A DNA stretch of 64,000 nucleotides from a bacterium (GTDB taxonomy: Bacteria; Patescibacteriota; Minisyncoccia; Phycocordibacterales; UBA2100), in contig JAUSGQ010000029.1 of assembly GCA_030674455.1 (NCBI GenBank), forward strand, positions 6,625 through 70,624. The letters run 5' to 3'. Shown piece after piece: positions 8,982 through 60,566 of this stretch. Both the position numbers and the translations under genes were made by a program. Position 1 is the stretch's first letter, and each line of letters begins with the position of its first letter. The notes beneath the pieces were generated by a model. The model was not told the DNA's origin. It searched no databases and was given only the letters and a program-made list of their open reading frames with translations.

Positions 8982-9027
8982 CTATCTGCGCATATCCCAG
9001 AGGCAAGTCAAAACCATCAAGGCTCAA

Positions 9028-9054
9028 AACCATCAAGGCGACGCCTTGATGGTT
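9028..9054. repeat. 27-nt perfect hairpin (aaccatcaaggcg-a-cgccttgatggtt) at the 3' flank of the RAYT gene. A half-copy lies at 9011-9022
   Basis: Seen in sequence; an identical copy lies at 9762-9788. Confidence 0.9.
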
Positions 9055-9740
9055 TCAGTAAAATAAGGGTCATCGGTCGCGACACTTGCGTAATACGCGC
9101 GGGCGTCCTCGAGCATTTTGCGTGGCGCGGTATTGCGGTACACGTCAAACGCGTCGCGGGAAAGTATTGCGACGATGTCTCGTTTCTCACCCGCAAAATC
9201 CGGAAAACTCGAATAGCGATATCCGCGCAGGAATTTTTCCAGCCGTGCCATGTCGCGCACCGCTCCTTTTTTCCATCCCGGTGCGAAGCGCTCGGCAGGA
9301 TTGCAATGGATGTAGTTGACGACGTGCTGGAAGTAGAGGTCTTCCCCCACATGCCGCGAGCGAAACGGTTTCATAAAAAGATTTCCTGTTCGATCGTTTT
9401 TCTTGTTGAAGTACATCGTGTACGCGGTACCGAGTTTCTGCATAAAGCGTGTGATCCCGCCCTCCATGATCTCCTTGAGAAGCAGGTGAAAATGATTCGG
9501 CATGAGGCAGTATGCCCCGATAGATACAAGAGCATTGGAGCGTTCAAGGGAAATTATCTCGCTCGTCGTTCGCTCCGAGAGATTGCTCCGATGCAGCGTG
9601 TCCGTCGAGTTCGCCAGATAGAGAATCTGTAAGAAGCGTTCCGAATTATCCTCGCTTTCGAAGACTATCCGCTTCTCGATGCCTCTGTTGTAACAGTGGA
9701 ACCATTCGTCGATTTGGAATGGGACTGGACGTTGCGCCAT
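9033..9740 (-). mobile_element. IS200/IS605-type Y1 (HUH) transposase, REP-associated tyrosine transposase (RAYT)-like
   Basis: 'LMPNHFHLLL' HUH motif and 'YIHCNPAE'. Likely start MAQRPVPF (ATG at 9740). The ORF-track start at 9794 lies inside the flanking hairpin. Confidence 0.8.
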
Positions 9741-9761
9741 ACGGCAAGTGTACCACAAGAA

Positions 9762-9788
9762 AACCATCAAGGCGACGCCTTGATGGTT
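9762..9788. repeat. Second copy of the 27-nt perfect hairpin, immediately 5' of the RAYT gene
   Basis: Identical to 9028-9054. Confidence 0.9.
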
Positions 9789-9809
9789 CTTCAAGGAGCG
9801 TCGTGTGGA

Positions 9810-10586
9810 TTAGTCAGAACAGGAGGCGAGGATTTTGTTGATTGCCGCGGCGGCTTCGTGCGGGCCTTTTACTTCCATCGTTTGTATGCCGGTTGGGATT
9901 ACGACGGCGTCGTTGCCTCCGGGCGAGAGATCGTCGCCGACAAAAATCATTTGAGCCGGTTCTACTCCGAGGCGTTTCGCCAGCCATTTCACGCCATGCG
10001 CTTTATCAATTTCCCGCGCTGTGATATCAATCGCAGTTCTTCCAGAAATACGGATATCAAGCCCTGTCAGTTTTTGGTCAAGAAAATCTTTGAGTTTCTT
10101 GCGCTTCGCGCGGTCGGTGTCCCACGCGGCCTTCATTTCGGATGAGGCATCCACTCCTAGCCCAGCGAATGTGACTTGCGAATCGCCTGCAAGAAATAAA
10201 CTGCCCCAGCGCGGAGCGCCTTTTAGCACCTCTGTATCTTCGATTGCTTCGTTGAACACTCGCATGATACTTTCGTACTCTTCTTTGGTGAAAGAGAATT
10301 TATAAGCGCTCCTCCATGTGCCGCTTTCAAAAATGAAGCATTGCGCGGCGGTATTGGGGAATAAATACAGGCGGCTTAAATCGGCCTTGCCCAGCGCGGG
10401 CAACAGGTCTTTTTCCATTCTAGCGAAACTCGCGCCCGACATGATGGCGACCGGAGCACGCTTGAGAAGTTCGCACAATCCTGTTGCGACCTCTTGTGAG
10501 GGCGGCTTAAAGCTTTCCGCAATCGTGTTGTCGAGATCGAAGATAACAGCGCGCGGAAATTTTGTAATTCTAGAATCGGCGTTCAT
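9810..10586 (-). CDS. HAD-superfamily hydrolase, subfamily IIB-like (phosphatase or phosphomannomutase-like)
   Basis: 'VIFDLDNTIA' motif I and C-terminal 'FVGDDLSPGGNDAVV'. Start codon overlaps the dedA-family stop (ATGA overlap). Paralog of 29548..30288. Confidence 0.7.
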   Translation of the reverse strand: MNADSRITKFPRAVIFDLDNTIAESFKPPSQEVATGLCELLKRAPVAIMSGASFARMEKDLLPALGKADLSRLYLFPNTAAQCFIFESGTWRSAYKFSFTKEEYESIMRVFNEAIEDTEVLKGAPRWGSLFLAGDSQVTFAGLGVDASSEMKAAWDTDRAKRKKLKDFLDQKLTGLDIRISGRTAIDITAREIDKAHGVKWLAKRLGVEPAQMIFVGDDLSPGGNDAVVIPTGIQTMEVKGPHEAAAAINKILASCSD

Positions 10587-11209
10587 ACGGCTGTATCCTC
10601 GGTTTTCTTCGCGTAATGCTTGTACCATTCTTTAAGGAGCGGGATGAAAGAAGTGATTATGATTACGAGAATAATCGGTGTGATGTAATGGTCAACTTGC
10701 GGAAATGTTTGCCCGAGGAAATATCCCGAAAATGTAATTCCCGCTCCCCACAGAATTCCTCCGGCGATGTTGTATGTCAAGAACGTCCGGTAACGCATTC
10801 CGGCAACGCCTGCAAGTATCGGAGCGAACGTTCGGACAATCGGTACGAAACGGGCCAAAACGATGGCAAGCACGCCGTGCTTTTCATAAAACGCACGCGT
10901 TTTCTCTACGTGAGATTTGCGGAAAAAACGAGAATCCTCGCGCTTAAAAAGCGCCGGCCCGACTTTTGTGCCGAACCAGTAACCCGTACTGTCGCCCAAA
11001 ATTGCCGCAAACGTGATTAAGGGAAGCAGAACCCATACATTGAAAATGCCGTGCGAAGCCAGAAGTCCGGCAGTAAATAGCATGCTGGAGCCCGGAAGAA
11101 AGAACATGAAGAAAATTCCGGTTTCGGCAAAGACTGCCGCGAACAAGCCGGGGTATCCAACAGCACGCACGAAAGTTTCTATGTTGCCCAGATCGGGAAT
11201 ATACGCCAT
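10583..11209 (-). CDS. DedA/VTT-family membrane protein
   Basis: 'FLPGSSMLFTAGLLA...GDSTGYWFG...LARFVPIVRTFAPILAGVAGM' are typical DedA motifs. Confidence 0.85.
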   Translation of the reverse strand: MAYIPDLGNIETFVRAVGYPGLFAAVFAETGIFFMFFLPGSSMLFTAGLLASHGIFNVWVLLPLITFAAILGDSTGYWFGTKVGPALFKREDSRFFRKSHVEKTRAFYEKHGVLAIVLARFVPIVRTFAPILAGVAGMRYRTFLTYNIAGGILWGAGITFSGYFLGQTFPQVDHYITPIILVIIITSFIPLLKEWYKHYAKKTEDTAV

Positions 11210-11228
11210 TTTCGGAATTATAGACTGC

Positions 11229-11352
11229 TAATTTGCAAATCCCAATTTGCAATTTGCAAACAAAATACCAAACCACAATTTCTCAGGCTCGGTTCGTTTG
11301 AGTTTTGTATTTTAGGATTTCTTTGCAAATTGATTTTTGATGCTTGCAAATT
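11229..11352. repeat. About 125-bp intergenic element rich in 'ttgcaaat' repeats; copy 1 of 2
   Basis: Shares 'aatttgcaaa.cccaatttgcaatttgcaaa' and 'gatttctttgcaaattgatttttg..gcttgcaaattc' with 37993-38113. Confidence 0.8.
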
Positions 11353-11364
11353 CGGATTCCCGCA

Positions 11365-13664: not shown

Positions 13665-14291
13665 TTAGTATTTCTTCTGCGTAATTCTGCGTCCGTTCAG
13701 CGATGGGCCGATAGGTTTGGTATCGGCACCTGTAGACGGTCTGCGTCGTGTCGCTTTTTGCGACACGAAGTGATTCCAATTGTCTTTAGCAAAACGGCCG
13801 GTTTTTTTATAATTCTGTTTCGGCGGAGAGGATATTGTTGAAAAAGTTATCTGCGCTATCTCCATACCGGGGCGCAAAATTATCGGAATGTTGTTCTGGT
13901 TGGTGATTTCAAAAGTGATGTTCAAAAAGTGACCCGGGTTTATTATGCCCGCCGTGTTGTGTATCATCAGCCCGACGCGGGCGAGGGATGACTTGCCACC
14001 TACCTGTATAAGGTAGTGGTCGGAGCCGAAAAATTCTTTAGAAATTCCGAGGACAGAAACTCCGGGGTGAAGCACAAATTCTTTCCCGTCTTTTATATTG
14101 ATTTCGCGCGTTTTTGCATAAATCTTTTTAACAGGGTCAACAAACTGCGAATTGTTCTCATCGTTGACGATGAATTTGTTCCCGAGCAGGATGTCGTACG
14201 AAACCGGCTGGAGCCGCGTTTCCTGGAATGGCTTGATGATAATCTCGCCGCTTTTTACCGCTTTCTTTATATCGACGTCTGACAAAAACAT
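13665..14291 (-). CDS. dcd: dCTP deaminase
   Basis: 'MFLSDVDIKKAVKSGEIIIKPF...VSYDILLG' dCTP deaminase/dUTPase fold start. Confidence 0.8.
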   Translation of the reverse strand: MFLSDVDIKKAVKSGEIIIKPFQETRLQPVSYDILLGNKFIVNDENNSQFVDPVKKIYAKTREINIKDGKEFVLHPGVSVLGISKEFFGSDHYLIQVGGKSSLARVGLMIHNTAGIINPGHFLNITFEITNQNNIPIILRPGMEIAQITFSTISSPPKQNYKKTGRFAKDNWNHFVSQKATRRRPSTGADTKPIGPSLNGRRITQKKY

Positions 14292-15858: not shown

Positions 15859-16431
15859 ATGAAAAAGCCCCTAATCACTGAGGTGGTAGCAATCGGGAGA
15901 AATCGGGAGCTTGGCAAGAACGATAAACTTCTGTGGCATATTCCCGATGACCTAAAACGCTTCAAGCGTCTGACTTTGGGGCATCCGATAATCATGGGAA
16001 GAAAGACGTTCGAATCAATAGTCGGGTACATCGGAGAACCGCTTCCGGGGCGCACGAACATAATAGTTACTCGCCAGACAAGCAAGTTCATCGCGGACAA
16101 TCCTTATTTGCTTATTCGCGCGAATAAGCAAATAGTTGGGAATACCAATTTATCTGCGCAGGATGGAGTGATTGTCGTTAGTTCCATCGAGGAGGGGATT
16201 GAAAAGGCGCGAGAGGAAAATCCGAAAGAAATTCACATCGGAGGCGGCGCGGAGATTTACGAACAAGCGCTTCCATATATAGACAAACTGCAGCTGACAA
16301 TAATCGACGACGAAAAACCAGCGGACACGTTTTTCCCGCCCTACGAACACATATTTACAAAAAAGGTTTTTGAGGAGTCGCGCGAGTGGAACGGCATCAA
16401 ATACAAGTGGATAGATTTAGAGCGCGATTGA
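15859..16431 (+). CDS. folA: Dihydrofolate reductase, with an extra ~20 aa relative to canonical DHFR that coincides with a 30-nt palindromic element
   Basis: 'LLWHIPDDLKRFKRLTLGHPIIMGRKTFESI...LPGRTNIIVTR' and 'IHIGGGAEIYEQALP' DHFR motifs. The insert 'NPYLLIRANKQIVGN' is encoded by palindrome 16105-16134. Confidence 0.85.
   Translation: MKKPLITEVVAIGRNRELGKNDKLLWHIPDDLKRFKRLTLGHPIIMGRKTFESIVGYIGEPLPGRTNIIVTRQTSKFIADNPYLLIRANKQIVGNTNLSAQDGVIVVSSIEEGIEKAREENPKEIHIGGGAEIYEQALPYIDKLQLTIIDDEKPADTFFPPYEHIFTKKVFEESREWNGIKYKWIDLERD
16105..16134. repeat. 30-nt perfect palindrome tatttgcttattcgcgcgaataagcaaata, in-frame within folA
   Basis: Core ttgcttattcgcgcgaataagcaa is shared with palindromes at 27159-27194 and 27504-27539. 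Confidence 0.9.
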
Positions 16432-16466: not shown

Positions 16467-16572
16467 CATTGCGAGGAATGAGGAGGAACGACGACTTACG
16501 AAGCAATCCAGGGTATCAGAATCAGAACTCCTGGATTGCTTCCCGCCACGCTATGCTCGCGGTCGCAATGAC
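16467..16572 (+). ncRNA. Repeated structured intergenic element (nested stems gtcattgcga/tcgcaatgac and aagcaatccagg/cctggattgctt); copy 1 of 2; function unknown
   Basis: 75-nt core gaagcaat.cagggtat...agaactcctggattgcttcccgccacgctatgctcgcggtcgcaatgac repeated at 49973-50050. A C-to-T change gives a G-U wobble on the + strand. Confidence 0.35.
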
Positions 16573-16607
16573 AGGTAATAATTAGACATACGATGTCTAA
16601 CTTTGAT

Positions 16608-24675: not shown

Positions 24676-25647
24676 ATGACTGAAGTTCTCAAAGAAACCA
24701 ACTTTTCCAACCTCGGTGAAAAGAAAACGGGCAAAGTCCGCGACATTTACATACAACCCGAGCGATTGGTGCTCGTGACGACCGACAGACATTCTTCGTT
24801 CGACCGCATCATCGCTCACATCCCGCACAAGGGCCAAGTGCTGAATCAAATCAGCGCTTTTTGGTTTGAGCAGACAAAAGATATTATTCCCAACCACGTA
24901 CTCGCGATTCCGGACCCCAACGTGACCATCGGTAAGAAATGCACGATGGTTCCCGTTGAAGCTGTTGTGCGCGGATATGTCACAGGCGTTACCGGTACAT
25001 CCATTTGGACACGGTACTCAAAAGGAAAACGGGATTTTGGCGATATTGTCTTGCCGGACGGATTGAAGAAAAATCAGAAATTGCCTCACCCGATATTTGA
25101 CCCGACGACAAAAGAAGATACGCACGACAGGACGCTTTCGCTTAAAGAAATGGTCTCAGAAGGATTGGTTACAGCGGAAATCTTGGAGCAGATACAAAAA
25201 ACGGCTCTCGCATTGTTTGCGCGAGGAGAAGAAATCGCAAAATCACGCGGACTTATTCTTGTGGATACGAAGTACGAATTTGGTTTAGACAAGTCTGACT
25301 TGTCGGAATCCGACAAGTCAGACTTGTCTAAAGGGCGATTGGTGTTGATTGACGAAATTCATACGCCCGACTCCTCGCGCTATTGGCAAGCGGATTCCTA
25401 CGAAGAGCGATTTTCAAAAGGCGAAGAGCCCCAGTATTTTGATAAGGAATTTTTACGCCTGTGGTTCAGGGAGCATTGCGACCCCTACAAGGACGCGACA
25501 CTTCCGGAGGCGCCTAAAGAGCTCGTGCAGGAGCTTTCGCGACGCTACATCCAAATGTTCGAGCAGATTACGGGAAAGAAATTCGTACCAGGCGAAGAGC
25601 CGATAATTCCGCGCATGGAGAAGAATTTATCAGCGTATAGCGTCTAG
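24676..25647 (+). CDS. purC: SAICAR synthetase. Contains a short in-frame tandem duplication (KSDLSESDKSDLSK, nt about 25290-25330)
   Basis: 'GKVRDIY...LVLVTTDRHSSFDR', 'VVRGYVTG' SAICAR synthase motifs. Confidence 0.85.
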   Translation: MTEVLKETNFSNLGEKKTGKVRDIYIQPERLVLVTTDRHSSFDRIIAHIPHKGQVLNQISAFWFEQTKDIIPNHVLAIPDPNVTIGKKCTMVPVEAVVRGYVTGVTGTSIWTRYSKGKRDFGDIVLPDGLKKNQKLPHPIFDPTTKEDTHDRTLSLKEMVSEGLVTAEILEQIQKTALALFARGEEIAKSRGLILVDTKYEFGLDKSDLSESDKSDLSKGRLVLIDEIHTPDSSRYWQADSYEERFSKGEEPQYFDKEFLRLWFREHCDPYKDATLPEAPKELVQELSRRYIQMFEQITGKKFVPGEEPIIPRMEKNLSAYSV

Positions 25648-27158: not shown

Positions 27159-27194
27159 ATCTACTTGCTTATTCGCGCGAATAAGCAAGTAGAT
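27159..27194. promoter_or_regulatory. 36-nt perfect palindrome atctacttgcttattcgcgcgaataagcaagtagat, 15 nt upstream of the ArsR-type regulator gene. Candidate operator or mobile hairpin
   Basis: Perfect dyad symmetry. The same core recurs at 27504-27539 and 16105-16134 with compensatory outer-arm changes. Confidence 0.6.
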
Positions 27195-27208: not shown

Positions 27209-27475
27209 ATGCATGAAATAGAATTGGAACGGCAGCTCAAAGTGCTAGGCAACAGACGGAGGCTTGCTATCCTGAATCTTTTGCGCAAGCGAAAGGATGT
27301 AAACGTAAGCGATATAGCAGACGCCATCAAGCTTTCACTTACATCAACATCGAGGCACTTGATTATGCTTGAGCGAATGGGGTTCGTCGAAAAGGAACAA
27401 AAAAGTCTTAACGTGTACTATCGAATCACTTCTACTCCAGCAGATACGTTGCGTGATGTGCTTAAACTGCTCTAG
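27209..27475 (+). CDS. ArsR/SmtB-family HTH transcriptional regulator (88 aa)
   Basis: 'GNRRRLAILNLLRKRKDVNVSDIADAIKLSLTSTSRHLIMLERMGFV' winged-HTH ArsR pattern. Confidence 0.75.
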   Translation: MHEIELERQLKVLGNRRRLAILNLLRKRKDVNVSDIADAIKLSLTSTSRHLIMLERMGFVEKEQKSLNVYYRITSTPADTLRDVLKLL

Positions 27476-27503: not shown

Positions 27504-27539
27504 CAATACTTGCTTATTCGCGCGAATAAGCAAGTATTG
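27504..27539. repeat. 36-nt perfect palindrome caatacttgcttattcgcgcgaataagcaagtattg, 3' of the ArsR-type regulator gene
   Basis: Seen in sequence. Confidence 0.9.
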
Positions 27540-35949: not shown

Positions 35950-36115
35950 TTGCAACGTGCGTTTCGGTTGCCGATGTTCTGGCCTACGCGAATGGAAACA
36001 GTAAAGGCACAGACGGTCAAACAAAATGAGTGCATAACTATTGAGATAATCAAAGTTTTCTTCAGAATTGAGAAGGCGTCCAGTTTGTGTTATGTATATG
36101 GCAGCGGACGAGACG
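35950..36115. repeat. About 165-bp direct repeat, copy 1 (about 85-90 % identical to 37025-37190), flanking the IS200-like element
   Basis: Seen in sequence. Confidence 0.8.
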
Positions 36116-36180
36116 TTATTTTTTTTGGTGAGTCCATTAAAGAGGAGAGCAGCGTGCATATTTTATTCGCGGGGAAAAGG

Positions 36181-36247
36181 GAAAAGGTGTCAGGAATCTT
36201 TTGTTGGAAAAGAAAAGGCAAGAAAAGGTGTCAGGAACCTTTTGTTG
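36181..36247. repeat. Left terminal repeats of the IS200-like element: two tandem hairpins gaaaaggtgtcagga(a/t)c(c/t)ttttgttg
   Basis: Inverted copies (cctgacaccttttc x3) lie at 36927-36990. Confidence 0.8.
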
Positions 36248-36265
36248 ATATGGTATAGTACACAA

Positions 36266-36940
36266 ATGGGAAGAGCGCTTCGTACTGATGTCGGAGGTTA
36301 TGTGTACCATGTATTAAATCGAGCGAACGCTCGCTCGACGATATTCAGGACAAAGGCAGATTACGAGTTGTTTGAAAAGGTGCTTGAAGAGGCCAAGGAA
36401 TTAATCGGCATGAGAATTCTTGCGTACTGCATCATGCCAAATCACTGGCATCTCGTGCTGTATCCCAAGAGTGATGGCGATTTGTCGAAGTTTGTTAATT
36501 GGCTGACGTTAACGCACACCCAACGCTGGCATGCCGCACATAATACGATTGGACACGGCCACTTGTATCAAGGGCGATACAAATCATTTCTGTGCGAGGA
36601 TGATGTTCACTTTATTCATCTCGTGCGATATGTGGAGCGTAATGCTTTACGAGCCAATCTTGCGCCTCGGGCAGAGGATTGGCGATGGGGAAGTGCGTGG
36701 CGACGGATTAACGGTACCGCGAAGCAGAAAGAATTGCTCGGTTCATGGCCGGTGCATATGCCGCAACGATATGTTGAACTCTTGAATCATCCGCAATCGG
36801 AGGAAGAAGTTAATGCGATGCGGCGGGCAGTTACCCGTGGCAATCCGTATGGTTCAGACGAATGGATAGAAAGGATGATAAAGAAGTTCCGTCTCGAAAC
36901 AACGGTTCGTTCGAGGGGCAGACCAAGAAAAGGTTCCTGA
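36266..36940 (+). mobile_element. IS200/IS605-type Y1 (HUH) transposase
   Basis: 'YHVLNRAN...RILAYCIMPNHWHLVL...HLYQGRYKSF...YVERNALRANL'. Start taken at MGRALRTD; the ORF-track start at 36068 reads through the flanking repeats. Confidence 0.8.
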
Positions 36941-36990
36941 CACCTTTTCCCTGACACCTTTTCCACCTTTTCTCCCACTGACACCTTTTC
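36927..36990. repeat. Right terminal repeats of the IS200-like element (gaaaaggttcctgacaccttttcc, then degenerate ctgacaccttttc units)
   Basis: Reverse complement of the left-end units. Confidence 0.8.
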
Positions 36991-37024: not shown

Positions 37025-37190
37025 GTCGCAGAATACGGTTGCCAATGTTTCTGGCCTGAATAAATGGAAACAGTAAAGACACAGACGGTCAAACAAAATG
37101 AGTGCATAACTATTGAGCTATGGTCAAAGTTCTTTGCCGAATTGAGAACGCGTCCAGTTTGTGTTATGTATATGGCAGCGGACGAGGTCT
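37025..37190. repeat. About 165-bp direct repeat, copy 2
   Basis: Matches 35950-36115. Confidence 0.8.
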
Positions 37191-37235
37191 GATTTCGTCC
37201 TCGAACATCCCGTCACTTTATGGAAGGACAGCACC

Positions 37236-37906: not shown

Positions 37907-37992
37907 AGATTCTTAATATTAAACGTTATTAATAAGCTTGGCCATATTGTATACCCCGCTTGCGTGATATGCCACAAGGCGTTATAGGCCAC

Positions 37993-38113
37993 AAATTTGC
38001 AAAACCCAATTTGCAATTTGCAAAAGAAATTTCAATTTTCAAAGCGGTTTTGCCGTTTGATTCTTGTAGTTTTTGATTTCTTTGCAAATTGATTTTTGGA
38101 GCTTGCAAATTCT
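37993..38113. repeat. 'ttgcaaat'-rich intergenic element; copy 2 of 2
   Basis: Matches 11229-11352. Confidence 0.8.
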
Positions 38114-38704: not shown

Positions 38705-38985
38705 GGTGCAATTCTAGCATTTTCTTGGAAAGCCCGAGGAGACACCTCCCCCTTCCCATCCTTCGCCAAGGCTTCGGAGGGCGCCGTGGGTGAGGAGTCA
38801 CCTCGGAAACTTCGGAATCCTACAAGGTGCGACCTTAAAGAGCGACTCCCAAGGTCGCACCTTGGGTGCCACCAAATCAAGGACTCCCCTTGATTTTTGG
38901 GTTATCCACACCTTATGGCGGTTCACCTTGCATTCATGCTAGGATATGCTATAATTATATTAATTACGAGCTAAATTAATATAAT

Positions 38986-43879: not shown

Positions 43880-43944
43880 ACGAACCCAAGGAGAGACCTT
43901 AAAGAATCACTCCCAAGGTCTCACCTTGGGTACAACTCATTATT

Positions 43945-47317: not shown

Positions 47318-47336
47318 ATTGAGATGACATCTCAAT
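47318..47336. repeat. 19-nt perfect hairpin attgagatg-a-catctcaat, 5' flank of the RAYT gene
   Basis: Identical copy at 48055-48073. Confidence 0.9.
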
Positions 47337-47367
47337 GGTTTTGCGAGTCTATGATAGACTTTTAGCC

Positions 47368-48042
47368 ATGACTCGTCGTCATGAATTTTCTGTCGATGAA
47401 TGGTATCACTGCTTCAATCGCGGAGTTGATAAGCGGATTGTGTTTGAGAACGAACAGGATGCCTCTCGTTTTCTCATCATCCTATACCTTGCAAACGGAA
47501 CCGAGCCAATGCAAATCTTTAACACGGACAAGCCAACGTTTGCCAAAGCCCTTGAGGAATATCGCGGCAAACCTATCGTTTCGCTTGGCGCATACTGCTT
47601 GATGCCAAATCACTTTCATTTACTTCTCAAGGAGATAATAGAAGGTGGTATAAGCGAATTTATGAGAAAACTCGGGATAGCATACACGATGTATTTTAAT
47701 GCAAAAAATCAGCGTGTTGGGAATCTATTTATTAGGCCGTTCCGGTCGCGTCATGTACGCGATGACAGTTATTTCCAAAGAGTTCTGCAATATATACATT
47801 GCAATCCTGCTGAATTGTATGAACCAGGTTGGAAATTGGGTAAAGTTAAAGACGTCCGGTTATTGGAGAAAAAACTTATCGAATATCCATACTCCAGCCT
47901 TCAAAGTTATGCAAAAGCGGGGGCATCAAACCCGATTCTTTCAGGTGAAGGACTTGAGATTGCGGATCAGTTACCGCTATCACAAATGCTCGACGAAGCA
48001 CAGGCCTATTATTCTGATGTTGCAGGGAGTCTTTTGCGGTAA
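47368..48042 (+). mobile_element. IS200/IS605-type Y1 transposase (RAYT-like); paralog of 9033..9740
   Basis: 'FSVDEWYHCFNRG...LMPNHFHLLLKEI...YIHCNPAE'. Confidence 0.8.
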
Positions 48043-49956: not shown

Positions 49957-49972
49957 TGGCGTTTGCCATGTC

Positions 49973-50050
49973 GAAGCAATTCAGGGTATACGTGCCAGAA
50001 CTCCTGGATTGCTTCCCGCCACGCTATGCTCGCGGTCGCAATGACTGGGT
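49973..50050 (+). ncRNA. Repeated structured intergenic element; copy 2 of 2
   Basis: Matches the 16497-16572 core. Confidence 0.35.
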
Positions 50051-52774: not shown

Positions 52775-52875
52775 TCCGAATCTACGAATTATCCGAATGC
52801 TACGAATGGCTACAAATGTGGGAATTTATTATTTGTAGTTATTTGTAGATTGGAATCCATTTGTAGATTGGTACA
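52775..52875. repeat. Intergenic repeat element (cgaatgctacgaatggctacaaatgt ... attatttgtagattggaat), copy 1, upstream of argJ
   Basis: Shared with 54980-55110. Confidence 0.75.
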
Positions 52876-54979: not shown

Positions 54980-55110
54980 TACCAATCTACAAATGTATTC
55001 CAATCTACGAATGCCAATCTACAAATGATACGAATGCTACGAATGGCTACAAATGTTAGTATTTCACATTTGTAATTATTTGTAGATTGGAATATATTCG
55101 CAGATTGGAA
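54980..55110. repeat. Intergenic repeat element, copy 2 (three ccaatctacaaatg units, then an inverted atttgtagattgg), upstream of argD
   Basis: Seen in sequence. Confidence 0.75.
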
Positions 55111-55122
55111 CATGTTTAAATT

Positions 55123-56298
55123 ATGAAATCAAAAGACATCATTGGTTTGTACAAAGATTACGTGATGCCCACGTATTTCACGACTCCGCTTGCCATCGTG
55201 CGCGGAAAGGGTACCTACGTTTGGGATGCCGAGGGAAATAAGTATCTCGATTTTTTCCCCGGATGGGCGGTGAGCGGTATCGGCCATTGCCATCCTGAAG
55301 TGGTGAAAGCAATAAAATATCAGGCGGGTAAACTCATTCACGTCTCAAATAATTACTTTAGCGAGCAGCAGGGGACGCTTGCAAAAGAAATCGTCTCCAA
55401 TGCTTTTCCCGGAAAAGTCTTTTTCTGCAATTCCGGAGCGGAGGCAAACGAAGTAGCGATCAAGCTCGCCAGAAAATACGGCAATCCGGAGCGCAATGAA
55501 GTCATTACAATGGAGCGCTCATTCCACGGGCGCACGATTGCGACAGTTACAGCGACAGGACAAAAGAAATTCCAAAAAGGGTTCGAGCCGCTTCCCGCAG
55601 GGTTTGCGACAGTACCCTTTAATGATTTTGCCGCTCTCGAGCGTGCTATAACTGCAAAAACTGCTGCAATTATGTTGGAGCCGGTACAGGGCGAAGGAGG
55701 CGTTAATGTTGCCGACGTGCAATATCTGACAGCGGTACGTAAGATTTGCACCGAGAAGAATATTCTCCTTATCTTCGATGAGGTCCAATCTGGAATGGGC
55801 CGCACTGGCAAGATGTTTGCGTATCAGAATCTCGCAATTGTTCCCGACATACTGACGCTGGCAAAATCTTTGGGAGGCGGTTTCCCAATTGGCGCCACCT
55901 TGGCTAAAGCCAGCATCGCGGATACGCTTGGTCCTGGTACGCACGGAACCACATTCGGCGGAAGCCCGTTGGCATGCGCAGCCGGGCTCGCGGTATTTAA
56001 GGCGATTAAGAAAGAAAAACTTCTGAAGAATGCGGTTGTCTTGGGTGCGTATTTGCAAAAGAAACTCAATGAACTGAAAAAGAAACACAGCGTAATTCGC
56101 GAAGTCCGCGGCGTCGGACTCATGTTGGGAGTGGAACTTACTACGGAAGGCAAAAAAATCTACGAAGAGTGCCTGAAAAAAGGGCTGCTCATCAACTGCA
56201 CACAGGAAAACGTGTTGCGCATCATGCCTCCAATAACGGTAACGAAAAGCGAGATTGATAAAGCGATTTCCATTTTGGATAAGGTACTCGACGCATAG
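55123..56298 (+). CDS. argD: Acetylornithine aminotransferase
   Basis: Class-III aminotransferase motifs 'LLIFDEVQSGMGRTGK', 'DILTLAKSLGGG'. Confidence 0.9.
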   Translation: MKSKDIIGLYKDYVMPTYFTTPLAIVRGKGTYVWDAEGNKYLDFFPGWAVSGIGHCHPEVVKAIKYQAGKLIHVSNNYFSEQQGTLAKEIVSNAFPGKVFFCNSGAEANEVAIKLARKYGNPERNEVITMERSFHGRTIATVTATGQKKFQKGFEPLPAGFATVPFNDFAALERAITAKTAAIMLEPVQGEGGVNVADVQYLTAVRKICTEKNILLIFDEVQSGMGRTGKMFAYQNLAIVPDILTLAKSLGGGFPIGATLAKASIADTLGPGTHGTTFGGSPLACAAGLAVFKAIKKEKLLKNAVVLGAYLQKKLNELKKKHSVIREVRGVGLMLGVELTTEGKKIYEECLKKGLLINCTQENVLRIMPPITVTKSEIDKAISILDKVLDA

Positions 56299-56350
56299 AT
56301 AGGGAAATAGATGAAATTGAGGATGATTGAGATACTTCCCGTTTGAGTTG

Positions 56351-56386
56351 TTCTATTCCAGTGTTTTGCAAAACACTGGAATAGAA
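56351..56386. promoter_or_regulatory. 36-nt perfect palindrome ttctattccagtgttttgcaaaacactggaatagaa, 6 nt upstream of the ArsR-type regulator gene
   Basis: Perfect dyad. Further copies at 56646-56675 and 57479-57530. Confidence 0.6.
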
Positions 56387-56391
56387 CTAGA

Positions 56392-56676
56392 ATGTTAAGA
56401 ATGGCAAATCGCAGTTACCGCACCATAGAACGCATCGTGAAGGGTTACGCCAACCACCGGCGGTTAGAGATATTAGATTTATTGCGCAAGGAACCGGAGC
56501 TTTCTGTGGAGGACATCTCTGAAAAACTGAAGATCGGGTATCAGAATGCTTCCGACCATATTCGCAAGCTTTCAATCGCGGGCCTTGTGGCCAAGCGGAA
56601 CGAGGGTCCAAGCGTTCGACACAAGCTTACGCCTCGGGCAGAGTCTATTCTAGTGTTTTGCAAAACACTGGAATAA
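56392..56676 (+). CDS. ArsR-family HTH transcriptional regulator (94 aa). Its last ~10 codons are encoded by a copy of the palindrome
   Basis: 'HRRLEILDLLRKEPELSVEDISEKLKIGYQNASDHIRKLSIAGLV'. Confidence 0.7.
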   Translation: MLRMANRSYRTIERIVKGYANHRRLEILDLLRKEPELSVEDISEKLKIGYQNASDHIRKLSIAGLVAKRNEGPSVRHKLTPRAESILVFCKTLE

Positions 56677-56717
56677 GAAGAGCGGCGGATGAGATTGTGA
56701 TATTTGCTTCATGTGCT

Positions 56718-57467
56718 ATGGAAACTTCAATCCGGCCAAAATACGATTTGGACAAAATAAAGTTTTCCACCGGTTCGCCGACATGGGAACGCGCGGTTGA
56801 ATTGTTCGAGAAGGGAAAGGTAACGAAATTTCAGGACAATGAAGGCTCATATTCGGCAACTGTCATTGGCACAAAACCGTATGAAGTTTGGGTATCTGCG
56901 GAGAAATTCGACGTAGGAGACTGCAATTGCTATCTCGGGCAGAAGGATGAATTATGCAAACATCTTGTTGCACTTGCGATACGGGTTGTAACTGGTGGCA
57001 ACTCGCTTTCTGAGAAACAAAAAAAGATGGTCGCTGTGCCTATTTGTAGTGGCAGGGAGGGAGAACTGGATAAGGAGAAGTTACAATCTGTGCAGACCGC
57101 AATTTCCGTGGCAATGAAATGTATCAAGGCCTATAACGGACCATCACGCACGTGGTTTATATATCAGGCTTCGCTCGCGGAAGGATGCACTCGCCTTGCC
57201 GCCACTTTTTCCGAATTACCCGTGAGCGAGCAAACTGCACAAATCGTCTTAAAGACACTTTTGCGTCTTGATGAAAAGCTTTGCCGAGGCGGAGTGGATG
57301 ATTCCGATGGCGCTGTCGGCGGTTTCATAGAGGACGCGGTCAGTATGCTCCTAGAGTATGTGAAATTAGAGCCATCATGCATAGGCGCATTTGAAATACT
57401 CAAAGGTCAATCGACGTGTTTCGAGTGGGAAGAGCCGCTCTTGAAAATCTCCAAAAGAGAAGGGTAG
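56718..57467 (+). CDS. SWIM zinc-finger domain protein
   Basis: 'DCNCYLGQKDELCKHLVA' = C-x-C-x9-C-x-H SWIM signature. Start taken at METSIRP. Confidence 0.6.
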   Translation: METSIRPKYDLDKIKFSTGSPTWERAVELFEKGKVTKFQDNEGSYSATVIGTKPYEVWVSAEKFDVGDCNCYLGQKDELCKHLVALAIRVVTGGNSLSEKQKKMVAVPICSGREGELDKEKLQSVQTAISVAMKCIKAYNGPSRTWFIYQASLAEGCTRLAATFSELPVSEQTAQIVLKTLLRLDEKLCRGGVDDSDGAVGGFIEDAVSMLLEYVKLEPSCIGAFEILKGQSTCFEWEEPLLKISKREG

Positions 57468-57478
57468 CTTACGACTTC

Positions 57479-57530
57479 TCTATTCCAGTGTTTTGCCCAC
57501 CAGAGGTCGGCAGGCAAAACACTGGAATAG
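57479..57530. repeat. Third copy of the ccagtgttttgc...gcaaaacactgg palindrome, with an 18-nt insertion in the loop
   Basis: Seen in sequence. Confidence 0.85.
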
Positions 57531-57670
57531 GGGAAATGGGAGAAAGGAATAACGGGTTTCGTAAAGATGCTCCCTGTTTGTCCACGCATTGCGTGGCTAC
57601 AAACAGCAGGTCTATCGGTTCATGATAGACACCTGTAGACGGCCCGCAGGGCATGTACTGCGGGTAAGAT

Positions 57671-59131
57671 TTGTGGGATGATTTGTCTATGATTCCTCCC
57701 GAAAAAGTGACTCTATTGGAAAGTCTGGTATTTGGGCAGCGAGTGGCTGAAGAAGAGCCCCGTCTGGAGGAGTACTTTGTTGAAACTTTGCTTTGGCGAA
57801 AGATTTTGCGTGGGGAAATAGACATCGTGTACGGAATGAAAGGGTCCGGAAAAAGCGCAATTTTCCATCTTCTGACAACTGGTCGAAATATGCCCGCTGG
57901 CATCAGGGTAATTCCTGCGGAGTATACTCGTGGAACGCCGGTTTTTAATGCAATAAAAACCGATCCACCTCCATCAGAAGTTCAGTTTGTGTATCTCTGG
58001 AAGCTGTATGTACTTTCACTTATTGCGAACGACGCCGAGATATTGAAAGTTCTCAAAAGCGATCACGCAGAACTTGTAGCAGAACTAGGTTCGGTGGGTG
58101 TAATTGGTGAGGATAAGGGTGAAATTCTAAAAAAAGCTCTACGGTATGTAGATACCATAAAAATACCCAATCTCGTCGAAGTGGGAATTAGTCACTCACA
58201 GGAGGCAGAGGACAAAAGAATAAATGTAGATCGAGCGATGGACGTACTTAATCATATTTTATCAAAAACAGGAAGTAACGTGTGGGTCTTGTTCGATCGA
58301 CTGGACTCGGTGTTTGATGATAACTCAGGTCTTGAAGAAAACGCACTCCGGGCATTATTTAAGACCTACAGAGATTTCTCAAGATACGATCATATATGTC
58401 TCAAGATATTTCTTCGTACCGATATCTGGAAAGCATTAACCAGTAAGGGATTTCGGGAGGCAAGTCACATAACGCAATCCGAAACAATTGAGTGGTCGGA
58501 GGTAAACATCGTAAACCTCATTGTCAGGCGCATTCTTAGCAATCCAAATATTGCCACTTTTTACCATGTTGTGCCAGAGCAAGTATTGGCCAATTATGAC
58601 GAACAGAAGAAGCTCTTTTATAGAATATTTCCAGATCAAATTGACGCAGGTTCAAGAAAGTCGGAAACCATAAGATGGTTGATGACGCGGGTGGGGGATG
58701 GAACACGACAGGTTGCACCTCGCGAACTCATTCATCTCTTAAATCAGTCGAAAGATGAGCAAATCAAAGCGTTGGAGCTTGGTGAATCTGTACCTGATGG
58801 AGAACATCTCTTTTCACCAGCAGCTATGAAAAGAGCATTGCCCGCAGTATCTCAAGTTCGTCTGGAACAAACTATCTTTGCTGAATACCCCAATTTGAGA
58901 CAGCACATTCTCATGCTGGAGAGCGAGAAAGCAACACAAACTCTCGAAACATTATCGAAAATCTGGAACGTGGATGAAGGGGAAACACTTAAAATTGCGT
59001 CAACCCTAGTTGAGATTGGTTTCTTTGAGCTACGTGGAGAAAAGAGAAAGCCGGAGTATTGGGTACCCTTCCTCTATCGGCCTCATTTAAAATTGATTCA
59101 GGGCAAAGCGGAGGAGGATGAATATGCTTAA
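57671..59131 (+). CDS. Uncharacterised P-loop NTPase (Walker A GMKGSGKSA, Walker B VWVLFDRLD); candidate defence/toxin-system ATPase
   Basis: Walker motifs seen. No confident family assignment. Operonic with a zeta-toxin-like gene. Confidence 0.5.
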   Translation: MWDDLSMIPPEKVTLLESLVFGQRVAEEEPRLEEYFVETLLWRKILRGEIDIVYGMKGSGKSAIFHLLTTGRNMPAGIRVIPAEYTRGTPVFNAIKTDPPPSEVQFVYLWKLYVLSLIANDAEILKVLKSDHAELVAELGSVGVIGEDKGEILKKALRYVDTIKIPNLVEVGISHSQEAEDKRINVDRAMDVLNHILSKTGSNVWVLFDRLDSVFDDNSGLEENALRALFKTYRDFSRYDHICLKIFLRTDIWKALTSKGFREASHITQSETIEWSEVNIVNLIVRRILSNPNIATFYHVVPEQVLANYDEQKKLFYRIFPDQIDAGSRKSETIRWLMTRVGDGTRQVAPRELIHLLNQSKDEQIKALELGESVPDGEHLFSPAAMKRALPAVSQVRLEQTIFAEYPNLRQHILMLESEKATQTLETLSKIWNVDEGETLKIASTLVEIGFFELRGEKRKPEYWVPFLYRPHLKLIQGKAEEDEYA

Positions 59132-59294: not shown

Positions 59295-60008
59295 ATGAAT
59301 ATAATCAATGAGGATAAAGAGCTTGCGGAGAGGGCGATGATTTGGGTTAAGCAGAATCAAAGACAGATTGTTGAAGATTTTGCTGGAAAGTTTCTTCCTG
59401 CTCCGGAACAAGCCGTATCAATCTTCATGGCAGGTTCACCGGGGGCCGGTAAAACTGAGTTCTCTCGACGCTTAATCGAAAAACAATTCGGCGCAGAGAA
59501 CAAATATATTATGCGTATTGATGCAGATGAAATTCGTTCGAAACTACCGTGTTATGTGGCAGGCAAATCGCATATTTTTCAACCTGCTGTTTCCGTTGCG
59601 GTTGAAAAGATACACGATCACGCCTTAGGCACGGGTAAAAGTTTCGTCTTGGATGGGACACTTACCAACCTAAAGAAGGCGCGCGACAATATTAAAAGGT
59701 CTCTTGAGAAGTCTCGGGTGGCATTCATCGAATATATCTATCAGGACCCCATCGTTGCGTGGGATTTCACCCAAAAAAGGGAGGCAGTGGAGGGTAGAAA
59801 TATTCCGCGGGATGCGTTCATAGACCAGTTCTTCCTTGCCAGAGAGAATGCTACAATTCTGAAGAGAGAGTTTGGGAAAGATATCACTCTCGACGTCGTC
59901 ACAAGGAACATCAGTACTAATGAGTACAAGTATTGGTTTAACGTTGACAATGTTGACAGCTGTATAAAAGATGAGTATAGTAAGGACCAGCTTTTAAAGA
60001 ATTTATGA
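59295..60008 (+). CDS. Zeta-toxin-family P-loop kinase-like protein
   Basis: 'IFMAGSPGAGKTEFSRRL...YIMRIDADEIR' parallels the zeta/PezT Walker A plus downstream catalytic Asp motif (GGQPGSGKT...IDNDTFK). Confidence 0.6.
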   Translation: MNIINEDKELAERAMIWVKQNQRQIVEDFAGKFLPAPEQAVSIFMAGSPGAGKTEFSRRLIEKQFGAENKYIMRIDADEIRSKLPCYVAGKSHIFQPAVSVAVEKIHDHALGTGKSFVLDGTLTNLKKARDNIKRSLEKSRVAFIEYIYQDPIVAWDFTQKREAVEGRNIPRDAFIDQFFLARENATILKREFGKDITLDVVTRNISTNEYKYWFNVDNVDSCIKDEYSKDQLLKNL

Positions 60009-60238
60009 AAGACTTTATTTACATTATCAAGTCTCTTTTCAAAAGAGAGGAGATAAAGATGCTTCCCAAGGTAAACCATAAAGAGGAAGTAACTGACCCC
60101 GTGTATCACTTTTTTGTGCATGGAAAAGCAATCGAAAGAAAGCGTGTATACGATAAGGCTCTTAAGGCTGCAGAAGCAGACCAAAAGGAAATCATTCGGA
60201 AATACAAATTACTTGAAAAGGATTTAGCGTCTGCGTAG
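60005..60238 (+). CDS. Small hypothetical protein (77 aa), translationally coupled (ATGA overlap) to the zeta-like gene
   Basis: ORF with overlapping start/stop. Predicted helical/coiled C-terminus. Confidence 0.4.
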   Translation: MKDFIYIIKSLFKREEIKMLPKVNHKEEVTDPVYHFFVHGKAIERKRVYDKALKAAEADQKEIIRKYKLLEKDLASA

Positions 60239-60566
60239 CCGCCCAGTGTCCGGCGATATTCTCAATTGCTGCCACTGCGTCCGTCTTGAGAATTGGTCGA
60301 CGAGGTGGGCGTCGGCACTTGTAGACAGGCCGTCTACAGGCGAATCAGTAGATTTCGTAGCTTGGCCTGCCTATCTCAACCCCATAGGCCACGATTTTCC
60401 ACAGTCTTCAAGATTGCACAAAAATACTGTGTGATATAGTGCGGTCGTGTCAGCACAAAAACCCACCCGTCCACAGGCGAATCAGCAGATTTCGTGGCTT
60501 GGCCTGCCGATATCTGTCCTATCGGCCACTGCGAAAAAGCATGCGGGAGTGCGCCGCGTAATCAGG

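Follow-up and report, generated by a model that had tools for sequence, protein, structure and literature searches.

A conserved ArsR-family gene of Patescibacteria and the palindrome that brackets it, a predicted autoregulatory site with dispersed copies

We analysed 64,000 nucleotides (nt) of contig JAUSGQ010000029.1 (NCBI GenBank assembly GCA_030674455.1, positions 6,625 to 70,624 of the forward strand), a stretch of patescibacterial DNA that is called the window below. In Patescibacteria, or Candidate Phyla Radiation (CPR) bacteria, transcription factors are very few and gene regulation is almost undescribed. The subject here is a small regulator gene of the ArsR/SmtB family, ArsR1, which is bracketed by two copies of a palindrome, with a third copy further downstream. 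The features concerned are as follows, in window coordinates.

56351-56386 (no strand): palindrome copy 1, perfect over 36 nt, extended to 19+19 nt at 56350-56387; core ATTCCAGTGTTTTGCAAAACACTGGAAT
56366..56393 (+ strand): promoter-like site, TTGCAA (at the palindrome centre), 16 nt, TAGAAT
56401..56676 (+ strand): ArsR1, ArsR/SmtB-family winged-helix gene, 91 amino acids (aa), from Pfam HTH_5, homologues, an AlphaFold2 (AF2) model and Foldseek
56644-56678 (no strand): palindrome copy 2, within the ArsR1 codons S-I-L-V-F-C-K-T-L-E-stop (helix alpha5)
57479-57530 (no strand): palindrome copy 3, arms as in the other copies, with the 19-nt central insert GCCCACCAGAGGTCGGCAGGC; member of a 47-nt subfamily

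Palindrome copies and the ArsR1 gene in the window

A first-pass annotation, made from the letters of the DNA, had described a perfect palindrome upstream of the ArsR gene and a one-mismatch copy spanning its last ~10 codons and stop, and both were found at the positions listed above. In copy 2 the 32-nt core differs at a single place, where CCAG has become CTAG, and the outer part has gained an A; the last ~10 codons and the TAA stop of the ArsR1 open reading frame (ORF) fall inside it. The third copy of that annotation is also present, with an insert that measures 19 nt relative to the 28-nt core and not the 18 nt given there; its arms (57480-57497 and 57513-57530) are 18 nt each and 100% complementary, with 15 nt between them. 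When the half-site ATTCCAGTGTTTTGC was searched with up to 2 mismatches, six matches were found in the window, all at copies 1-3, against 0.14 expected, and none of 100 shuffles got to 6. The three copies were thus confirmed as real and far beyond chance.

The predicted hairpins of copies 1, 2 and 3 have free energies of -24.9, -16.9 and -38 kcal/mol (z = -7.6, -4.8 and -7.9). An Rfam search of the whole window gave zero matches, and a terminator scan found no T-run after any of copies 1-3 and no terminator-like site at any of them. The idea that the copies act as classical transcription attenuators or terminators was not borne out, since none is followed by a T-run. Logan contig L012 (1.3 kb) carries an argD identical to that of the window and breaks within copy 1 (L012:1331-1344), as expected if the palindrome is a repeat breaking assembly in that sample. 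In an exact-protein look-up, neither ArsR1 nor the SWIM zinc-finger protein encoded downstream of it was on record; only argD was found.

Judged from its homologues, ArsR1 likely starts at ATG 56401 (MANRSY...), the in-frame alternative at 56392 being less likely. The protein matches Pfam HTH_5 (PF01022) with 34.9 bits (cutoff 22). Its AF2 model (predicted local distance difference test, pLDDT, 90.3) has the order a1-a2-a3-a4-b1-b2-a5, with helices at residues 6-16, 19-30, 36-43, 47-59 and 78-89 and strands at 63-68 and 71-76, and the best Foldseek matches of the model were CadC, SmtB, CzrA and HlyU (TM 0.80-0.87). A metal site is lacking, as alpha3 reads ELSVEDI, with no CXC of the ELCVCDL type, and alpha5, RAESILVFCKTLE, has no His/Asp cluster; one Cys is conserved in alpha5. 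ArsR1 is a genuine ArsR/SmtB-fold protein of a non-metal subgroup and, from its fold, probably dimeric.

The family has at least 844 homologous clusters. The best 120 homologues are 73-93% identical to ArsR1 and 83-127 aa long, nearly all 88-98, and those that are named come from Kaiserbacteria, Paceibacterota, Minisyncoccota and Parcubacteria, the rest being just "bacterium". The recognition helix is almost invariant, IGY(Q/E)NASDH. The family is very conserved and belongs to CPR bacteria. The Q/E of this helix was tabulated against the C-terminal codons, a comparison too confounded by phylogeny to use.

All 120 top homologues carry the ...ILVFCK.L. end or a near variant of it, which is helix alpha5 in the model. 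The first-pass annotation had considered that a mobile hairpin made the ArsR1 C-terminus. Because the end is family-wide and equals alpha5, it was not made by hairpin insertion in this genome, and a recent insertion was ruled out.

The TAGAAT -10 hexamer ends 7 nt ahead of ATG 56401. Such a hexamer 6-7 nt before the ATG suggests a leaderless ArsR1 mRNA, with the palindrome over the -35 and spacer. The promoter-like site is the sole sigma-70-like match on the + strand in 56200-57750, a count that is not significant alone.

The palindrome-ArsR1-palindrome block across lineages

Readable DNA was available for nine lineages: the window, L003, L008/L025, L017/L053, L035, L039, L040 and L042, plus duplicates. 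In all nine, one palindrome copy is centred 29-34 nt before the ArsR1 ATG and one lies in the last codons, and a -10-like hexamer (TAGAAT, TACAAT, TAAAAT, TATACT or TATCAT) stands 6-7 nt before the ATG in seven of the eight loci read in detail. The 5' and 3' copies co-vary by lineage. L042 has the perfect CTATACTAGTG...CACTAGTATAG (CTATACTAGTGTTTTGCAAAACACTAGTATAG) at both ends, L039 and L040 carry AGTATTTTGCAAAAGACTGCA at both ends of the block, and L035 has one asymmetric version of the palindrome, identical at its two ends.

The codons inside the 3' copy were compared among eight genes. At pairs encoding the same amino acid the same codon was used at a frequency of 0.80 in the last 12 codons, compared to 0.40 in the gene body, and these 12 codons are the highest 12-codon window of the gene for synonymous-codon identity. 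Leu CTA, Phe TTT, Cys TGC and Lys AAA of the ArsR1 end were identical in 28 of 28 pairs. The 3' copy always reads CTAG (Leu), whereas the upstream copy reads CCAG, which would give Pro in that frame. With its codons frozen and CTAG kept in place of CCAG, the 3' copy is under constraint at the protein level and at the DNA level alike. Those positions of the site that do not vary, AGT.TTTTGCAAAA.ACT, are conserved in sequence and not merely in structure, suggesting that the reader is sequence-specific.

L003 is homologous to the window over 56345-56677 only, from palindrome to palindrome. L039 and L040 encode identical ArsR1 proteins. Their 330-nt blocks share 94.5% identity, against 77-80% for the flanking genes, which are also rearranged: TspO is found on one side of the block in L039 and on the other in L040, and in L035 the block has yet another place. 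The ~330-bp unit of site, gene and site behaves as a discrete unit.

A paralogue of ArsR1 in the same window, ArsR2 (27209-27475, 88 aa, HTH_5 39.9 bits), stands between two copies (27162-27191 and 27507-27536) of another palindrome, TACTTGCTTATTCGCGCGAATAAGCAAGTA, which is perfect over 30 nt. The geometry is that of ArsR1, with the palindrome centre 32 nt ahead of the ATG and TACAAT 6 nt ahead of it. The ArsR2-type palindrome occurs a third time in the window, at 16105-16135, and the type recurs with a compensated outer stem in CPR loci (L006:4092, L029:690 and L023:860, the last inside an ORF). Two paralogous regulators, each with its own palindrome in one layout, have the expected look of cognate operator pairs.

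With slightly better than even confidence, we read the palindrome as the predicted cognate DNA site of ArsR1 and the block as autoregulatory. The first-pass annotation had proposed the palindromes as putative ArsR operators with autoregulation, and this idea is supported because the layout is found in nine of nine lineages, the copies co-vary, the synonymous codons of the 3' copy are frozen and ArsR2 repeats the design. From the anatomy, conservation, co-variation, DNA-level constraint and protein fold of the block we infer that ArsR1 binds the site, represses and senses a signal, possibly redox through the single conserved Cys. Copy 1 covers the promoter -35 and spacer, so a bound ArsR1 dimer would shut off its own gene. 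Copy 2 would be kept at the DNA level as a second site within the codons of the dimerisation helix; it might act as a roadblock, looping partner or insulator toward the downstream gene and add a hairpin to the 3' end of the transcript. Copy 3 and the copies elsewhere would be a low-copy population of hairpin repeats, derived from the ArsR1 site or sharing its reader. The block sits among changing neighbours, often defence or toxin genes; in the window these are the genes of the SWIM protein, the P-loop protein and the zeta toxin, which are inserted between argD and ppsA.

The known ArsR/SmtB autorepressors (SmtB, CzrA, CadC, HlyU, NolR) have the same fold, match HTH_5, are likewise small and have a palindrome over their own promoter. 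ArsR1 differs from them in lacking the alpha3 CXC and alpha5 His/Asp metal site, in having a site that is a long perfect palindrome (28-38 nt), in the second copy coded family-wide in its own alpha5, in the extra copies dispersed even into genes, and in the leaderless type of its promoter. Two features are unusual for an operator, namely a copy in the codons of the regulator's own dimerisation helix with synonymous sites frozen, and the evolution of the same palindrome by compensatory changes inside miaA (see below). Literature searches found no description of an ArsR-palindrome system. One of the most conserved small DNA-binding proteins of CPR bacteria is here paired with a precisely predicted site. 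Should the dispersed copies prove to be bound, they would be the first CPR-wide regulon or chromosomal marking system; if they are selfish, they would represent a new kind of partnership between hairpin repeat and protein.

Dispersed copies and copies inside coding genes

An exact-pattern scan of GTDB genomes found the palindrome in 11 stretches, all from metagenome-assembled genomes (MAGs) labelled as CPR or from entries named "bacterium". One MAG has it on five contigs, with at most 7 copies in DNA from those contigs. A metagenome scan gave 22 contigs with the palindrome and a scan of viral contigs gave 0 matches. Most dispersed copies have no ArsR nearby. They are placed between ordinary metabolic genes (such as serS, argF, purA, gap, aroK, msrB and ahpC) in divergent, tandem and convergent arrangements. 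According to the first-pass annotation, hundreds of unrelated intergenic sites with no association to the regulator would speak for a generic repeat. Unrelated sites were indeed found by the dozen in related genomes, at few per genome, and the association with the regulator was universal and not absent.

Across 36 distinct copies that were aligned, the inner 18 nt were nearly invariant. L015/L021, L016, L022 and L026 were not counted in the family, as they have unrelated loops and flanks and may be chance hairpins sharing a 13-nt arm. The 47-nt form to which copy 3 belongs, with the loop GCCCTCCAGAGGCGGGCAGGC, is found nearly unchanged at non-orthologous sites (L018/L027, L033, L028/L031) and in both orientations relative to the adjoining genes. 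Compared to its orthologue L004 (85% identity), L028 has an extra 1.9 kb with the 47-mer at its edge. These dispersed palindromes indicate a low-copy hairpin-forming repeat, resembling repetitive extragenic palindromes (REPs), that moves or is copied, which is more than a plain operator would call for, and copy 3 is probably not an ordinary operator.

Several observations weigh against an operator of ArsR1. The promoter scan lacks significance on its own, and the -35 spacing ranges from 13 to 19 nt when TTGCAA is read as the -35. The dispersed copies are without the geometry of the ArsR1 promoter, some lying between convergent genes and some inside genes, and in two loci a canonical promoter, TTGACA-17-TAT..., begins 40-46 nt downstream of the palindrome. 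Pairing and covariation extend past the core into the outer stem, with many changes on both arms (75.5% of cells paired, compared to 40-48% when slid). The covariation exceeds all controls and was reached by 0 of 500 shuffles; a double-stranded operator does not need it. The conserved 47-nt form spaces its half-sites by 21 nt rather than 2 nt, a spacing that hairpin recognition fits better than a dimer on B-DNA. A simple regulon, in which the distance from site to start codon would be constant, was also considered and is unsupported by the positions of the dispersed copies.

These copies bear on a different reading, which we consider rather unlikely. Here the palindromes are selfish hairpins like REPs, moved in trans by Y1 transposases of the IS200/RAYT type (RAYT, REP-associated tyrosine transposase), and the ArsR block is a gene-carrying doublet resembling a REPIN (REP doublet forming hairpin) that needs no binding by ArsR. 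The window contains three IS200/RAYT-like Y1 transposase (Y1_Tnp) genes, at 9033-9794, 36068-36940 and 47335-48042, two of them bracketed by their own palindromes. The first has AAACCATCAAGGCGACGCCTTGATGGTTT at 9026-9054 and 9760-9788, and the second has GAAAAGGTGTCAGGAAyCTTTTG hairpins at 36178, 36222 and 36919-36952. The two bracketed genes are REPtron-like units in a CPR-type genome, and since such genuine units coexist with the ArsR units in the window, the dispersed copies may be selfish. The selfish reading is favoured too by the dispersal of the ArsR palindrome at non-orthologous sites in every gene-orientation context, by the compensated stem flanks and the one form with a nested insert, and by the block changing place relative to TspO among L035, L039 and L040. 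However, a Y1 gene adjoins the ArsR palindrome in none of 54 loci, the copies are few (no more than about 7 in one MAG's contigs) and there is no GTAG or CGTC head. Moreover, the link of gene and palindrome extends across at least 844 clusters with an ancient in-codon copy, and the site in miaA is kept at the orthologous position despite 65-82% protein divergence.

REP/RAYT systems (REPtrons, REPINs) resemble the ArsR block in that a gene is bracketed by a hairpin palindrome that is also scattered in the genome, and in vertical inheritance and co-evolution with the flanked gene. The ArsR block differs in that a non-catalytic winged helix is flanked and not an HUH/Y1 enzyme, in palindromes that are low-copy (3 in 64 kb, all local, where REPs number tens to hundreds per genome), perfect instead of imperfect, and coding in one case, and in the absence of a GTAG/CGTC head from the palindrome alignment. 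The features by which REP/RAYT papers define REP/RAYT are not found in the ArsR-palindrome system. A related reading, which we hold to be unlikely, is that the ArsR-like protein and the palindrome form a vertically inherited REPtron-like system in which the non-catalytic winged helix replaces the Y1 transposase. The palindrome would then spread slowly, preferentially into the loops of existing hairpins, and would be kept up in miaA by compensatory evolution. Such spread would explain the complementary, variable flanks and the nested 47-nt form. If this were true, ArsR1 would read hairpin or cruciform DNA or mark chromosomal sites and not be solely a promoter repressor.

The cyanobacterial small dispersed repeats (SDRs), reportedly described by Elhai in 2008, are said to be palindromic repeats of 20-30 nt with nested insertions at genic and intergenic places. 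No mobilising enzyme and no associated regulator gene is known for them. The ArsR palindrome shares their size, nested insertion, genic and intergenic spread and lack of a known mobilising enzyme; the SDRs are far more numerous, whereas the ArsR palindrome has a regulator gene and a core common to classes of CPR bacteria.

It is quite unlikely, in our judgement, that the copies work at the RNA level, as stem-loops ending, stabilising or processing transcripts between cassettes (terminators without U-tract, RNase III sites). The predicted hairpins are very stable, many copies stand just past stop codons or between convergent genes, and loop length varies with the stem kept and covarying. On the other hand, copies 1-3 have no T-run, Rfam is without a match, the core is conserved by sequence and not by pairing alone, and the 47-nt form has its insert running with transcription at some sites and against it at others. 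Copy 1 lies ahead of the -10 box and would thus be left out of the ArsR1 mRNA.

We regard as very unlikely that the palindromes are recombination sites exchanging gene cassettes, like integron attC or Xer-dependent pdif sites. Single genes are bracketed (ArsR and SWIM in the window, AhpC in L033), homology breakpoints fall at palindromes, and the extra 1.9 kb of L028 against L004 is bounded by a 47-nt copy. In our own reading of the sequence, the core can be divided as 11-6-11, the layout of a dif site, but the 19-nt insert would destroy the 6-nt spacer and so break that layout. No integrase, Xer or other recombinase gene was seen in the palindrome-bearing loci, and it is difficult to square an active recombination site with the copies that lie within essential coding sequence.

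Four loci have the palindrome within a reading frame, where it encodes YSSVLQNTGI; the proteins are MiaA, PurN, an HhH-GPD glycosylase and the product of an amidohydrolase-like ORF. Compared to homologues in the PDB, MiaA and PurN have zero inserted residues over the palindrome-encoded segment, and that of PurN even falls 3 residues short of its counterpart in 3av3. Among MiaA orthologues, the nearest 120 have related native peptides, e.g. YASVLQNNSI, YFSILQNSKI and YCSILQNTAI. In-frame insertion like that of Rickettsia palindromic elements (RPEs) was therefore ruled out for miaA and purN, as there is no added length and such peptides are native to the orthologues. RPEs insert 100-150 bp and so lengthen the protein. 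They share with the present palindrome the in-frame repeat in housekeeping genes, translated as a harmless peptide (here YSSVLQNTGI), and differ in that here 30 nt replace or occupy native positions without length change and the miaA palindrome is ancient and compensatory.

Four MiaA lineages have a 30-nt palindrome related to the ArsR site at the same codons (~86-95) with compensatory changes (L009:1809-1860, L045:10245-10296, L046 and L047:5387-5438, all Paceibacteria-type genomes), conserved at the orthologous position across 65-82% protein divergence. The versions of L009, TATTCCAGTGTTTTG|CAAAACACTGGAATA, and L047, TATTGCAGTATTTTG|CAAAATACTGCAATA, are both perfect, and the latter agrees in 23 of 24 positions with the variant that L039 and L040 have at their ArsR gene. 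Among 84 unique MiaA segments, all five codon pairs were reverse-complement-encodable above column shuffles (0-2 of 2000), a test inflated by relatedness. In three of the palindrome-bearing miaA loci, parB lies just upstream of miaA.

The vicinity of parB touches on a further reading, most improbable in our view, of ArsR1 as an architectural or centromere-like DNA binder (as ParB-parS or the archaeal AspA) and of the palindromes as its loading sites. Such sites would be few and perfect per genome, indifferent to genes, some of them coding and one in the binder's own gene, as the palindromes are; a Bacillus parS lies in spo0J. There is a weak AspA sequence match (E = 1e-3), the miaA site adjoins parB in three loci, and the conservation of ArsR1 is extreme for a transcription factor. 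Against this, the nearest folds are ordinary ArsR/SmtB repressors, no partner ATPase is linked, and the site at its own promoter fits plain autorepression. In sum of likeness, ParB-parS and AspA with its centromere palindrome have few perfect sites, one in or near the binder gene, and tolerate coding DNA, while ArsR1 differs in being without a ParA-like partner and in a fold nearest to classical ArsR repressors.

Some neighbours of the dispersed palindromes were recorded separately. AhpC is bracketed by two palindrome copies at L033:2462-3221, MsrB at L029:145-715 has an ArsR1-type palindrome after its stop and an ArsR2-type one before its start, and TspO and VIT1 neighbour palindromes elsewhere. 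Together with the single conserved Cys, these neighbours hint at an oxidative-stress link.

Neighbouring genes and other repeats

Downstream of ArsR1 the window contains the following further features.

56718..57467 (+ strand): SWIM-type zinc-finger protein, 249 aa (signature, Pfam, PADLOC PDC-S62)
57609..57647 (no strand): D12 short hairpin repeat, unlike the ArsR palindrome, 67-72% identity to the copy at 13706-13744
57671..59131 (alternative ATG 57689; + strand): P-loop NTPase-like protein, 486 aa (PADLOC PDC-M28C, 1.2e-23)
59295..60008 (+ strand): Zeta-toxin family kinase, 237 aa (Pfam Zeta_toxin, PF06414, 5.8e-29, 101.4 bits, cutoff 22.3)
60005-60238: 77-aa ORF overlapping the zeta gene

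The SWIM gene encodes the signature C-N-C-x8-C-K-H (CxCx8CxH). Its Pfam PF04434 score is marginal (19.2 bits, cutoff 19.6), two close homologues carry a precomputed PF04434, and the N-terminus matches PADLOC PDC-S62 at 1e-14. The family is large in CPR bacteria (1664 matches) and is found in variable or mobile contexts. The first-pass annotation had taken ArsR and SWIM as a pair, with the palindromes possibly controlling the downstream module. The SWIM gene stands beside ArsR1 in the window and in none of the other eight lineages, and no copy of the ArsR1 palindrome was seen at SWIM loci elsewhere. A conserved pair was ruled out on these grounds. In one such locus (L051:5824-7864), a SWIM homologue, a 58-aa ORF and AbiEii lie between two fragments of ribosomal protein S10, with an rve integrase and a Fic/MazE pair near, which resembles an island inserted at rpsJ.

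The 486-aa P-loop protein had no match in a Pfam search and is a candidate defence gene. Two D12 copies (57609-57647 and 60295-60333) bracket the module of NTPase, zeta and 77-aa ORF, and a terminator-like match on the minus strand (57630-57610) lies within the first of them. The whole island of SWIM, P-loop and zeta genes sits between argD and ppsA. The neighbours of the ArsR1 block differ in every lineage and are often defence- or toxin-like: type I and IIG restriction, PemK, Mrr, Fic, MazG-like, a SLFN-type helicase with an S24 peptidase, and M78 with DUF4411, besides TspO, cupredoxin and a GDSL lipase. What follows the ArsR1 block in the window, namely the SWIM, NTPase and zeta genes, is variable cargo rather than an operon under ArsR control. 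In L042 the PemK gene beside the ArsR block is flanked by another repeat, aatcctcTCCGCCAAAGGCGGACAGGcat...atttcgcgggggtt (10297-10315 and 10967-10985), part of which is similar to the 19-nt insert that marks the 47-nt palindrome.

Structured repeats are unusually abundant in the window, and several short families are common to CPR MAGs. A 97-nt repeat, 85% identical between 52779-52875 and 55016-55112 and densely packed with the motifs ATTTGTAGATTGG / CCAATCTACAAAT, immediately precedes argJ and argD and occurs also in Kaiserbacteria L008:7883-7987 and in L018:925-1035; it may be an arginine-regulon operator region. A second short family (60330-60392 and 60467-60529) is duplicated upstream of ppsA and common to L003:2894-2954. 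The ppsA ORF as called is long and opens with GTG; its true start is probably further in, near MEEAGIG. Other repeats, of 50-140 nt and 83-91% identity, pair 16499-16575 with 49972-50048, 11218-11353 with 37982-38112, 35977-36121 with 37049-37195, and 38823-38872 with 43887-43936. A perfect 24+24-nt palindrome at 25284-25332 lies inside the ORF 24676-25647, and the ORF at 209-6385 (2058 aa) has long internal tandem repeats and a C-terminal Ig-like surface domain.

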